Below are positions 36,186 through 38,420 of a stretch of 64,000 nt of DNA, in pieces. The stretch lies in the IMG/VR virus record IMGVR_UViG_2778261510_000005. The stretch is one strand, 5' to 3'. A model generated the notes under the pieces. The model was given only the letters and a program-made list of their open reading frames with translations, searched no databases and was not told the origin of the DNA. This DNA is from a virus. Lineage: Duplodnaviria; Heunggongvirae; Uroviricota; Caudoviricetes. The position numbers and the translations under genes are program-made. The first letter of the stretch is position 1. Every line of letters starts with the position of its first letter.

Positions 36186-36266
36186 TTTGCAATAGTTGAA
36201 CTCCATGTAGACCACAAACAACCTGAGTTAAAATAACGAAAATCAGAGCAAATAATTGGTGATGAC

Positions 36267-36551
36267 GTGGCAAGTATTGCAACAAAAGACAGCATTTGTT
36301 CGGGGCACGGAGGATTCCCATCTAGGCCTCCTGTAGAGAGTGAACCACTACTTAAAGTCAACGGAGTCGAAGTGTTAGTTGATGGTAAGCAATATGCACA
36401 GCATACCGATGGAAACAGTACGCACGGTGGGCAAGCTATATCAACCAGGGCATGGTTTACCGTCAATGGTAAAGGGATCGTATGCGTTGGTGACCCTGTT
36501 TCATGCGGATCTACCGTAGCGTCCGGAGACGGCCTGGTTCAGGTAAGTTAG
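36267..36551 (+). CDS. PAAR-like small protein (94 aa, GTG start)
   Basis: Repeated xCxGHGG / VGDPVSCGS motifs resembling PAAR spike-tip proteins. Confidence 0.5.
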   Translation: MASIATKDSICSGHGGFPSRPPVESEPLLKVNGVEVLVDGKQYAQHTDGNSTHGGQAISTRAWFTVNGKGIVCVGDPVSCGSTVASGDGLVQVS

Positions 36552-36559
36552 GAGATATC

Positions 36560-37348
36560 ATGCTGGAAAAAGACTACCAGTTATCCGCATATAAAAAATT
36601 GGCCGCCGCCGGTGGGATGAAAACACCTGGTGCCATAACATCGGCACGAAACAGTGCTAACACAGCAAAACTGCTTGCAGAAGAATTGACCGGATTAATT
36701 CTGGATACAATTGTCTATCCCGACACTATTACCAGCTATGTTTCAACGATCAGAACAACCACAACCGGCTTAACGAACATTGTCGAACTGGCAACTAAGC
36801 ACGCGGACCTGTTGGCTGGTTATGCAGATCTGTCAATGCTGCTTCAACTCGATATTGGTTGGGATGTTTACTGCCGTGCTAATGAGCGAGAAGTATCAGA
36901 ACTGCCGATCTCTATTGCCATTGGTGATGTGACTATTACTAAATCGCTTGAGGACGCTGTAAACGCGCTTAATACATCAAGTTTAATCGCTGCTATGGGG
37001 GAGATTAACCAGACCCTTAACACTGGCTCAGGAAGCTCGTCAGGCTCTGGTTCAGGCGGCGGCACTGCCACTCCCCCACCAGCACTAACAGAAGAGCAAA
37101 TTGAATCTCTGAAAGTAGCAACTGAACAGTTTGGGGTTGTTTTCAACCAGACAACAGCGCCCACAACTGCGTTACAACAGCAGTATGAACGAGCGAATGA
37201 AAGCGCCAATGTAGCCATAACTGCTTATAACCATGCTATCGGTACTGCGCTTGCGGAAGCATCAGCAAATAAGGCCAGCACAGCCAGCGCAGTTGCTGCT
37301 TTGGTTCCTGATTCTGTTCTTGATGAATTAAACAAAGCGGCACAGTAA
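36560..37348 (+). CDS. Hypothetical protein with Gly/Ser-rich linker (262 aa from the RBS-preceded ATG)
   Basis: GGAGAT RBS before ATG 36560; internal GSGSSSGSGSGGG linker; the longer ORF starts at 36503. Confidence 0.65.
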   Translation: MLEKDYQLSAYKKLAAAGGMKTPGAITSARNSANTAKLLAEELTGLILDTIVYPDTITSYVSTIRTTTTGLTNIVELATKHADLLAGYADLSMLLQLDIGWDVYCRANEREVSELPISIAIGDVTITKSLEDAVNALNTSSLIAAMGEINQTLNTGSGSSSGSGSGGGTATPPPALTEEQIESLKVATEQFGVVFNQTTAPTTALQQQYERANESANVAITAYNHAIGTALAEASANKASTASAVAALVPDSVLDELNKAAQ

Positions 37349-37387
37349 CAAAGGACTTCATTGATAATTTTCCTTCAGGAGGAAGAC

Positions 37388-37810
37388 ATGTCATTCTTTT
37401 CTACGTTAAAAACAGCTTTGTCTTTGAAGGAGAAACTTGCTGCTACTGGTGTTCTTGTTCTGATTTGCGCACTTGTTGGTGCTGGGTTTGCATGGGAACG
37501 TCATCAGCTAAAGCAAGCCATCGAGAAAATTGGCAGTCTTGATCAGGCTGTTAAGGAACGTGATAAGTCAATAATGGATCTTAACCAGACCATTGAGACG
37601 ATGAACAAAGCAGATCAACATTTTCACAGCCAGGAAGTGAAAAATGAATCAGAGCAAGCCAAGTATGCTGACAGGCAAATGGAACGAAAAGCAGAAGTTC
37701 AGAAACAACTGGTTGCGGCGGGTAATGTTCGCCAGCGCATTCCTGCTGACACTCAGCGGTTGCTCCGGGAGTCGATCAGCGAATTTAACGCCGACGCCGA
37801 CAAAGGTTAA
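37388..37810 (+). CDS. i-spanin-like protein (N-terminal TM helix + periplasmic coiled coil)
   Basis: AGGAGG RBS; TM segment ATGVLVLICALVGAGFAW followed by a charged coiled coil; a lipoprotein ORF is embedded in another frame at its 3-prime end. Confidence 0.6.
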   Translation: MSFFSTLKTALSLKEKLAATGVLVLICALVGAGFAWERHQLKQAIEKIGSLDQAVKERDKSIMDLNQTIETMNKADQHFHSQEVKNESEQAKYADRQMERKAEVQKQLVAAGNVRQRIPADTQRLLRESISEFNADADKG

Positions 37811-37976
37811 CCACCCTGCCCCCAAAAGTGCATTTATGTGCAGGATGCCGGAGTTTAGCAGTGAATATTTTGATGATCTGCCAGCGTATATCCTCGATAC
37901 AGAAACGATGCTGATGGGGATTAACAGGAAGAATCGCAACGTTAATGATTACAACCGCGCTATCAGCGGTAACTAA
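37644..37976 (+). CDS. o-spanin-like lipoprotein embedded in/overlapping the upstream gene
   Basis: Lipobox LLTLSGC within a signal peptide, Pro-rich mature region; true start probably internal (ATG 37665 or 37725); overlaps the 37388..37810 gene out of frame. Confidence 0.5.
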   Translation: MNQSKPSMLTGKWNEKQKFRNNWLRRVMFASAFLLTLSGCSGSRSANLTPTPTKVNHPAPKSAFMCRMPEFSSEYFDDLPAYILDTETMLMGINRKNRNVNDYNRAISGN

Positions 37977-37987
37977 AAGGGATTTTT

Positions 37988-38380
37988 ATGTCTGATAAAG
38001 TAACAGTTAAGCAAACTATCAACAAAGCGACTTCAATCTATAAAATTGAGCAAATCACTGTTGGCAAGCCAGGATCTGAACAATACCGTCATGCTTTCGA
38101 ACTTGCCGATCAGCTTGGTTTAAAACACCCGGATTGTATCGAGCATGTATTTCCAACTTATGCTGATGAGCAATGTAATCAAGTGCTTATTGAAGAGGAT
38201 TTTTTCAGCACTGAAGAACGAGAAGGCGTTGATCGCTGCATTGGTGTGATTTGTTCTTCGGTAAGTGATGATTTATTCCCTAATGTTCCGGAAGGTGGTG
38301 GTGTTGGATACCAATTCCTGTATGAAGGCGATGAGCTTAAATGTTATGAACATGGTCTTCTTATCGAAAGCGTAGAATAA
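37988..38380 (+). CDS. Hypothetical protein (130 aa)
   Basis: ORF between the spanin-like pair and oriR. Confidence 0.6.
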   Translation: MSDKVTVKQTINKATSIYKIEQITVGKPGSEQYRHAFELADQLGLKHPDCIEHVFPTYADEQCNQVLIEEDFFSTEEREGVDRCIGVICSSVSDDLFPNVPEGGGVGYQFLYEGDELKCYEHGLLIESVE

Positions 38381-38420
38381 TACGGTTTCCTTCCAACCGG
38401 CTTTGTTGGCCGGTTTTTCA

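Follow-up and report, generated by a model that had tools for sequence, protein, structure and literature searches.

The ppfA and mlp genes of a P1-like phage-plasmid: a predicted two-component spanin pair of overlapped arrangement

Introduction

Can two genes that lie beside a plasmid replicon, remote from the endolysin gene, encode the spanin of a phage? This question is raised by a pair of out-of-frame overlapping genes in a stretch of 64,000 nucleotides of viral DNA (IMG/VR record IMGVR_UViG_2778261510_000005). This whole stretch is hereafter called the window. The upstream gene encodes a small membrane protein and the downstream gene a putative lipoprotein (Table 1). An original prediction, made from the letters of the DNA, read the two as a spanin pair. 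Here we report the prior record of the pair, the evidence that both frames code, the relationship of the products to known spanins, and the expression of the transcription unit.

Results

The pair corresponds to ppfA and mlp of phage P1

The 701 bases around the pair are 98.3-98.9% identical to those of P1, P7, RCS47, SJ46 and other P1-like phage-plasmids; for P1 itself the DNA identity is 98.6%. Judged from its sequence, the window belongs to a P1-like phage-plasmid, and the two ORFs correspond to ppfA (P1_gp064) and mlp (P1_gp063) of phage P1 (NC_005856). PpfA of the window differs from that of P1 in one residue (E76D). Mlp differs in three residues (N4S, L17Q and V32A), all of which are inside the signal sequence.

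The P1 pair is already on record as a predicted spanin pair, in the literature from 2007, in a spanin catalogue from 2018 and in RefSeq product names. In Table S1 of SpaninDB (Kongari et al. 2018, PMC6139136), the pair of P1 NC_005856.1 is classed as 'ovl'. There, the i-spanin is gp064, with 140 aa, of which 104 are periplasmic, and with Cys in the TMD only; the o-spanin is gp063, with 110 aa, of which 71 are mature, a 39-aa signal and one periplasmic Cys. The signal of gp063 is flagged as 'Too long signal sequence' in the same table; gp063 is LipoP-positive with cleavage at the 39th position, and negative for the Prosite lipobox. Bednarek et al. 2022 names the P1 pair as spanins and credits Summer et al. 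2007 with the identification. The text of Bednarek et al. interchanges the i- and o- labels of the pair, presents the spanin role as a prediction and speaks of 'yet another unlinked operon'. The RefSeq product name of mlp in NC_005856 is 'Rz-like spanin', and in MH422554, MH445380/1, ON018986 and KU760857 the pair is named Rz/Rz1 or 'outer membrane lytic protein / lipoprotein'. The original annotation of P1 described mlp as 'possibly involved in regulation of lysis (by homology)'. The statement in the original prediction that the P1 genes are annotated only as a periplasmic protein and a lipoprotein was mistaken: the catalogue of Kongari et al. 2018, RefSeq and GenBank already say spanin or Rz/Rz1. 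The comparison with published spanin catalogues that it had proposed finds the pair as gp064/gp063. We searched the literature after Bednarek et al. 2022 for an experimental test of P1 ppfA/mlp function and found none.

Table 1. Positions of the gene pair, its signals and its neighbours in the window
Feature	Position	Strand	Description
upfC	36267..36551	+	PAAR-motif protein, first gene of the unit; Pfam PAAR_motif E=8.5e-6, phrog_281 E=2e-30
upfB	36503..37348	+	function unassigned; phrog_1559 aligns to aa 20-281 only
ppfA Shine-Dalgarno AGGAGG	37377..37382	+	read from the sequence; also in Table S1 of Kongari et al. 2018
ppfA	37388..37810	+	predicted i-spanin, 140 aa; cytoplasmic N-terminus, TMD, helical periplasmic domain
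ppfA TM helix LAATGVLVLICALVGAGFA, codons 17-35	37436..37492	+	Kyte-Doolittle 19-residue maximum, mean 2.35
mlp Shine-Dalgarno-like AGGAAG	37632..37637	+	within ppfA codons Q82-E83-V84; AGGAGG in four relatives
mlp	37644..37976	+ (+1 frame relative to ppfA)	predicted o-spanin precursor, 110 aa; signal 1-39, mature 40-110
Dual-frame stretch, 167 nt	37644..37810	+	PpfA residues 86-140 = Mlp residues 1-56
mlp lipobox codons L37-S38-G39-C40	37752..37763	+	match to regular expression; lipidation-Cys codon 37761-37763
upfA	37988..38380	+	last gene of the unit; phrog_1453
Intrinsic-terminator-like hairpin and T-run	38395..38415	+	8-pair stem with 5 G-C pairs, then TTTCACTTAT

Predicted topology of PpfA and Mlp

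The ppfA gene starts with ATG. Its product possesses a single hydrophobic segment (residues 17-35), and 36% of the remaining 104 residues are charged. From this pattern, PpfA is predicted to be a type-II protein with a single N-terminal TMD and with its bulk in the periplasm; we infer the N-in/C-out orientation. The hydrophobic residues between positions 37 and 80 recur with a period of 3.45-3.5 residues, and this periodicity was attained by only 1 of 2000 shuffled sequences (0.05%). An AlphaFold2 model built on a 13-sequence alignment, the confidence of which is modest (mean pLDDT 68), contains a helix at residues 13-110, a break at residues 111-119 (AAGNVRQRIP) and a second helix at residues 120-137. 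Thus, PpfA has the single N-terminal TMD and the mostly helical periplasmic domain with an internal break that are looked for in an i-spanin. Its periplasmic part contains no Cys. The heptad periodicity, the charged residues and the modelled helices bear out the initial reading of one N-terminal TM helix followed by a charged coiled coil.

The lipoprotein ORF with the lipobox LLTLSGC that had been described in another frame, overlapping the 3'-end of ppfA, is found as mlp. LSGC within this segment matches the pattern [LVI][ASTVI][GAS]C. All eight sequences compared carry Ser at +2, and none carries Asp there. With a signal sequence, a lipobox and this Ser residue, Mlp is expected to receive a lipid and to be directed to the outer membrane. 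Mlp thus has the lipobox signal and is free of an inner-membrane retention signal, as looked for in an o-spanin, with the caveat of a 39-aa signal and a negative Prosite result in the table of Kongari et al. The mature part (71 aa) contains six Pro residues, clustered at TPTPTKVNHPAP, and five of them are within its first 21 residues. The description of the mature part as Pro-rich therefore holds for its N-terminal portion and not for the remainder. Mlp has one further Cys, C66, which is invariant in the eight sequences. A periplasmic Cys in either subunit is one of the features of spanin pairs (at least one is present in 507 of 528 catalogued pairs; criteria of Summer et al. 2007 and Kongari et al. 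2018), and in this pair it is supplied by C66.

The genes overlap and both frames code

The spanin genes of a phage may be embedded, overlapped or separated, and here they are adjacent and overlapped. The pair had been described at first as having embedded architecture. By the definitions of Kongari et al. 2018, however, it is overlapped and not embedded, because mlp shares 167 nt with ppfA and extends 166 nt beyond the ppfA stop codon.

The length of the mlp ORF is not evidence by itself, because an antisense ORF of 96 aa (37649..37939) occupies the same DNA. Therefore, the coding status of mlp has to be judged from relatives. Cronobacter phage JK004 encodes a PpfA that is 59% identical, and four contigs from Klebsiella/Salmonella-type P1-like plasmids encode proteins of about 60% identity. 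Two distant relatives with about 30% identity in PpfA came from searching 1.84 billion representative proteins with a profile: a set of P1-like contigs of ~92 kb with the same synteny (P0077) and a 1.2-kb contig (P0084). The +1 ORF, an ATG preceded by a Shine-Dalgarno sequence and the lipobox are preserved in JK004 and in the relatives L086-L089, L090 and L093. In all seven lineages the ORF has 109-111 codons, and the ATG is 38-39 codons ahead of the lipobox Cys. The residues L34, L35, L37, C40 and C66 do not vary among the eight sequences, nor does a C-terminal motif (Y-I-x-D...N-x-K-N...N-x-Y).

We estimated dN/dS by the Nei-Gojobori method over five lineages. In DNA that belongs to mlp only, dN/dS was 0.085 in the mlp frame versus 1.9-2.2 in the other two frames; in ppfA-only DNA it was 0.19. 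In the shared stretch, dN/dS was 0.19 in the ppfA frame and 1.87 in the mlp frame, so that selection at the protein level does not show up in the mlp frame of this part. Pairwise nucleotide identity was highest in the shared stretch (0.82, versus 0.71 in ppfA-only and 0.755 in mlp-only DNA), and the dS of the ppfA frame fell from 1.24 to 0.68 there. The high identity and the halved dS are as expected for dual coding. Taken together, the estimates show that both genes are under selection. The signal-sequence end of Mlp is shaped mainly by ppfA.

These values bear on the view that the +1 ORF is open by chance and that ppfA is the sole gene. ORFs of around 100 aa are common at this locus, as the antisense ORF exemplifies, and gene callers omit the mlp ORF in most of the related contigs. 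However, the low dN/dS of the unshared part against values of about 2 in the other frames, the invariance of the ORF, lipobox and second Cys across seven lineages, and the homology of Mlp to P2 LysC (see below) all oppose a chance frame. We rejected this view on the comparative evidence and regard its probability as negligible. On the same evidence, the mlp frame is a coding one.

PpfA and Mlp are probably remotely related to the P2 spanins

PpfA matched phrog_89, annotated as 'Rz-like spanin', with E=1.1e-24 over residues 21-139, although this match is partly circular if PpfA is itself a member of that group; P2 LysB matched the same PHROG with 5.8e-61. Mlp matched its own family, phrog_30284 (E=1.8e-76), and phrog_456 (E=3.8e-5). 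P2 LysC in turn matched phrog_456 with 1.7e-31 and gave a reciprocal match to the PHROG of P1 Mlp with 5.4e-4. When the Mlp family profile was aligned with P2 LysC by hhalign, the probability was 94% (E=1.3e-7, 34% identity, 65 columns). In this alignment, the lipobox Cys residues are paired, as are the second Cys residues, the latter in a C-x-MP motif. When the PpfA family was aligned with P2 LysB, represented by one sequence, the result fell short of significance (hhalign probability 2.5%). The best NCBIfam matches of the two proteins were LysB and LysC, both below the cut-off (TIGR03495, 17.9 versus 92.75 bits; NF038368, 14.4 versus 27 bits). Neither protein had a significant match in Pfam, and the models Rz (PF03245) and Rz1 (PF06085) were not matched at E<=1. 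Searches of PDB sequences with both family profiles returned chance coiled-coil matches only and no solved relative.

By these comparisons, the pair is probably a distant relation of the spanins of P2 and not of lambda Rz/Rz1; Mlp is best described as a remote homologue of P2 LysC and not as its equivalog. The kinship fits the original P1 remark on mlp and lysis 'by homology'. The search of 1.84 billion representative proteins gave 30 matches, nearly all of them from the narrow P1-like family or fragments. Scans of genome and viral contigs detected near-identical P1-like loci only, and tblastn against phage records recovered JK004 as a single divergent relative. Sequence alone does not allow the PpfA/Mlp family to be followed to the lysis cassettes of other phages.

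The pair belongs to a late-expressed unit that is unlinked to the lysis genes

In P1, the genes are arranged in the order upfC-upfB-ppfA-mlp-upfA. They are co-directional and are flanked by the divergent dmt/hrdC/uhr operon and by oriR/repA. The real start of upfB is probably ATG 36560: an AGGAGA is located 5 nt ahead of this codon, and upfB relatives have 258-260 aa and begin with MLEKDYQL. The upfA slot is variable, and relatives carry a Gp49-family gene or nothing in its place. From its position and structure, the hairpin downstream of upfA is likely to mark the end of the transcription unit.

A location in the lysis cassette is typical of spanin genes but does not strictly define the class, and this pair lies elsewhere, among a PAAR spike-tip gene, genes of unassigned function and the plasmid replicon. 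A tblastn search of the 64-kb window with P1 Lyz, a query that was verified against P1 records, gave no match. On the P1 map, lyz occupies 20.3-20.9 kb and ppfA/mlp 63.4-63.9 kb, and the two loci are about 43 kb apart. These results agree with the observation that no holin or endolysin gene is visible near the pair.

We compared the expression of the unit with that of other P1 genes in published RNA-seq data for P1vir (PMC8201110, Table S1, WT). At 10 min, the values for upfC, upfB, ppfA, mlp and upfA ranged from 4.1 to 5.6, and at 30 min from 10.5 to 11.2. The means for lyz, lydA, lydB and lydD were 4.7 at 10 min and 11.0 at 30 min, and those for structural genes were 4.2 and 11.2. The flanking genes uhr, hrdC, dmt, repA and parAB had already reached 7.4-9.5 at 10 min. 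Because the values from upfC to upfA match those of the lysis and structural genes, the unit is late, as expected of a spanin. Thus, in these published data the pair is expressed late alongside the holin and endolysin genes.

The only promoters that the P1 annotation gives in front of ppfA are predicted sigma-70 promoters. From the annotated P1 promoters LPlyz, LP23 and LP26, we derived a box for late promoters that depend on Lpa (AAGTNACTT-N4-TANNNT) and scanned the window with it. The scan recovered LP23; between 35800 and 37400 there was no match of 6/8 or better.

When the sequences upstream of upfC were aligned, TAnnAT at 36229-36234 was invariant. A weak box, AAACAACCT (5/8), is placed 4 nt upstream of it, and the corresponding box in the relative L088 reads TAATGACAA. 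The combination of an Lpa-like box and TAnnAT upstream of upfC is a suggestive lead to a late promoter.

Mutants of lambda Rz/Rz1 form plaques under ordinary conditions. In a CRISPRi screen of P1 (PMC10695390), the EOP was 1.3/1.2 for ppfA and 0.24/0.19 for mlp, and both genes were scored as non-essential for plaques. Bednarek et al. 2022 states that spanins are dispensable for the lysis of shaken cultures. Since phages can do without spanins in many laboratory settings, the plaque result does not bear on spanin function and is at most weak evidence against such a role.

Location, promoters and knock-down could also be explained if the two proteins act together in the envelope but not in lysis, for instance in superinfection exclusion, in a change of the envelope made by the plasmid prophage or in assistance to the PAAR/baseplate genes of the unit, and resemble spanins in topology only. 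The pair shares its unit with the PAAR gene upfC, adjoins the plasmid replicon and is far from lyz and lydAB; the promoters annotated before ppfA are of the sigma-70 type; and plaque formation survives the knock-down. However, the kinetics are those of the lysis and structural genes and not of a lysogen-type gene. In addition, PpfA shares a PHROG with P2 LysB, Mlp aligns with LysC at 94% probability, the P2 pair sits in a lysis cassette, and the paired, overlapped architecture is retained wherever the family occurs. We therefore consider a non-lysis job very unlikely.

Start of the lipoprotein

The long signal sequence raises the issue of where translation of mlp begins. The upstream ATG at 37644 is the only candidate start with a Shine-Dalgarno sequence, which is present in 7 of 7 lineages (AGGAGG in four). 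The conservation of this element is not independent evidence for the start, because the same bases encode the invariant Q82-E83 of PpfA. The region ahead of the lipobox has drifted in sequence, and yet its length (38-39 aa) and its composition (7-8 K/R and 0-1 D/E) are kept. Its first ~25 residues are 40% identical, versus 74-80% for the rest of Mlp.

One explanation is that the spanin pair is real but that translation of the lipoprotein begins inside the frame, at a codon located 16 codons upstream of the Cys (TTG 37713 in the window), which would make the 39-aa signal an artefact. A possible start codon is found at -16 in 5 of 7 lineages (ATG in L086, L088 and L089; TTG in the window and L090). 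The poor conservation of the first 25 or so residues, the dN/dS of 1.87 for the mlp frame in the overlap and the flag for excessive length in the table of Kongari et al. 2018 are in line with such a start. Furthermore, the alignment with P2 LysC begins no earlier than residue 27 of Mlp, and LysC possesses no such extension. In contrast, none of the internal candidates has a Shine-Dalgarno sequence, whereas the upstream ATG has one in all seven lineages; JK004 and L093 are devoid of any start at -16; and the length and basic character of the extension are maintained. On balance, we consider the internal start unlikely.

Another idea is that the conserved region of 38-39 residues is a working feature, which might gate or slow the export of the o-spanin, or that two starts might give a long and a short precursor. 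We regard the probability of this idea as low. In either case, P1-type phages would gain control of lysis timing at the spanin step, beside their unusually complex holin set.

Discussion

We propose that ppfA and mlp, in their overlapped arrangement, together specify a two-component spanin for a phage of the P1 type, and we estimate the probability of this predicted function at roughly 85%. The spanin reading of the original prediction is thus supported by the TMD and helix topology of PpfA, the lipobox of Mlp, the gene overlap, C66, selection on both frames, the homology to LysB/LysC and late transcription. Against it we count the unlinked location, the 39-aa signal, the absence of a Pfam Rz/Rz1 match, the null hhalign result for LysB, the absence of an Lpa box of 6/8 or better and, with little weight, the CRISPRi result.

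By analogy with lambda Rz/Rz1, PpfA would be anchored in the inner membrane and Mlp, by its lipid, in the outer membrane, and the two would bind through their C-terminal periplasmic parts. The complexes would then bridge the periplasm through the mesh of the cell wall, and C66 of Mlp may form a homodimer disulfide. The SAR-endolysin Lyz would destroy the wall, with the timing under the control of LydA/LydB. Complexes freed by the loss of the wall would fuse the inner and outer membranes, as proposed from lambda, and the phage would be released.

As a discovery, this matters little. The present analysis adds modest support to a spanin pair that was already predicted in P1, in the form of selection on both frames, the homology link to P2 LysB/LysC and the match to the late class in published RNA-seq. 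P1 is also a good case of lysis genes that are dispersed across several unlinked units.

Apart from the P1 pair itself, P2 lysB/lysC is the closer of the known systems compared. Both pairs are overlapped, and their dimensions are similar (141 + 96 aa with a 146-nt overlap in P2; 140 + 110 aa with 167 nt in the P1-type pair). In contrast to the P1 pair, which is unlinked, lysB/lysC lies inside the Y-K-lysA-lysB-lysC cassette. Mlp further differs from LysC by about 22 extra basic N-terminal residues and by a longer conserved C-terminal part (INRKNRNVN-YNR). With lambda Rz/Rz1, the pair shares the predicted topology and the presumed mechanism, namely a type-II coiled-coil i-spanin and a small Pro-containing lipoprotein in the +1 frame. 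However, the lambda proteins have no detectable sequence similarity to PpfA/Mlp (Pfam, E<=1). Rz1 is encoded wholly within Rz, whereas mlp runs 166 nt past ppfA, and Rz has two periplasmic Cys residues whereas PpfA has none.

Late expression and composition of the upfC-upfB-ppfA-mlp-upfA unit

The promoters annotated for the upfC-upfA unit are of the sigma-70 type only. Upstream of upfC, a TAnnAT hexamer (TAAAAT) is invariant in five diverged relatives. It is preceded, at a distance of 4 nt, by AAACAACCT, a weak Lpa-like box. In the contig L088, the counterpart of this box is TAATGACAA, which is close to AAATGACTA of P1 LP26. As judged from these motifs, the region may be an unannotated late promoter. 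If this promoter is real, it would account for the late kinetics of the unit in RNA-seq despite the sigma-70-only annotation.

The upfC product is a PAAR-motif protein resembling a spike tip, so a probable virion component is encoded together with the spanin genes in one late transcription unit. In the P1 annotation, upfB starts at ATG 36503, which gives it a 49-nt overlap with upfC. However, its alignment to the PHROG begins only at residue 20, the relatives are 258-260 aa proteins with the N-terminus MLEKDYQL, and AGGAGA is located 5 nt upstream of ATG 36560. The true start codon is probably 36560. At the 3' end, a terminator-like hairpin lies between the late unit and oriR/repA and sets them apart.

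Features in and around the upfC-upfA unit
Feature	Position	Strand	Remarks
Candidate late promoter	36216..36234		Lpa-like box and hexamer
TAnnAT hexamer	36229-36234		TAAAAT, upstream of upfC
upfC	36267..36551	+	PAAR-motif protein, T4 gp5.4-like spike tip
Annotated to probable start of upfB	36503..36562	+	ATG 36503 to ATG 36560
Mlp signal sequence	37644..37760	+	
Variable slot	37988..38380		3' of mlp
Terminator-like hairpin	38395..38415	+	8-bp stem then T-run; 15 nt past upfA stop

The content of the slot downstream of mlp differs among relatives: P1 and Cronobacter phage JK004 carry upfA, the contigs L088, L089 and L090 carry a Gp49-family (PF13876) gene, and L086 has no called gene. In phage JL22, upfA is interrupted by a blaCTX-M-55 insertion (PMC9603915).

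Variation in the predicted spanin proteins

Several PpfA/Mlp "fusion" proteins of 193-195 aa, relatives of the products of 37388..37976, are present in public assemblies (P0003, P0024, P0039 and P0041). They are products of single-base indels in one of three A-runs, where the reading shifts from the PpfA frame to that of Mlp following PpfA residue 85, 97 or 138. Either the indels arose in assembly, or the spanin genes are decaying in plasmid prophages resident in their hosts.

The signal sequence of Mlp has a basic N-terminal extension of ~22 residues. Across seven lineages, the length before the lipobox Cys (38-39 aa) and the charge are kept, while the sequence is not. P2 LysC, a homologue of Mlp, possesses an ordinary short signal.
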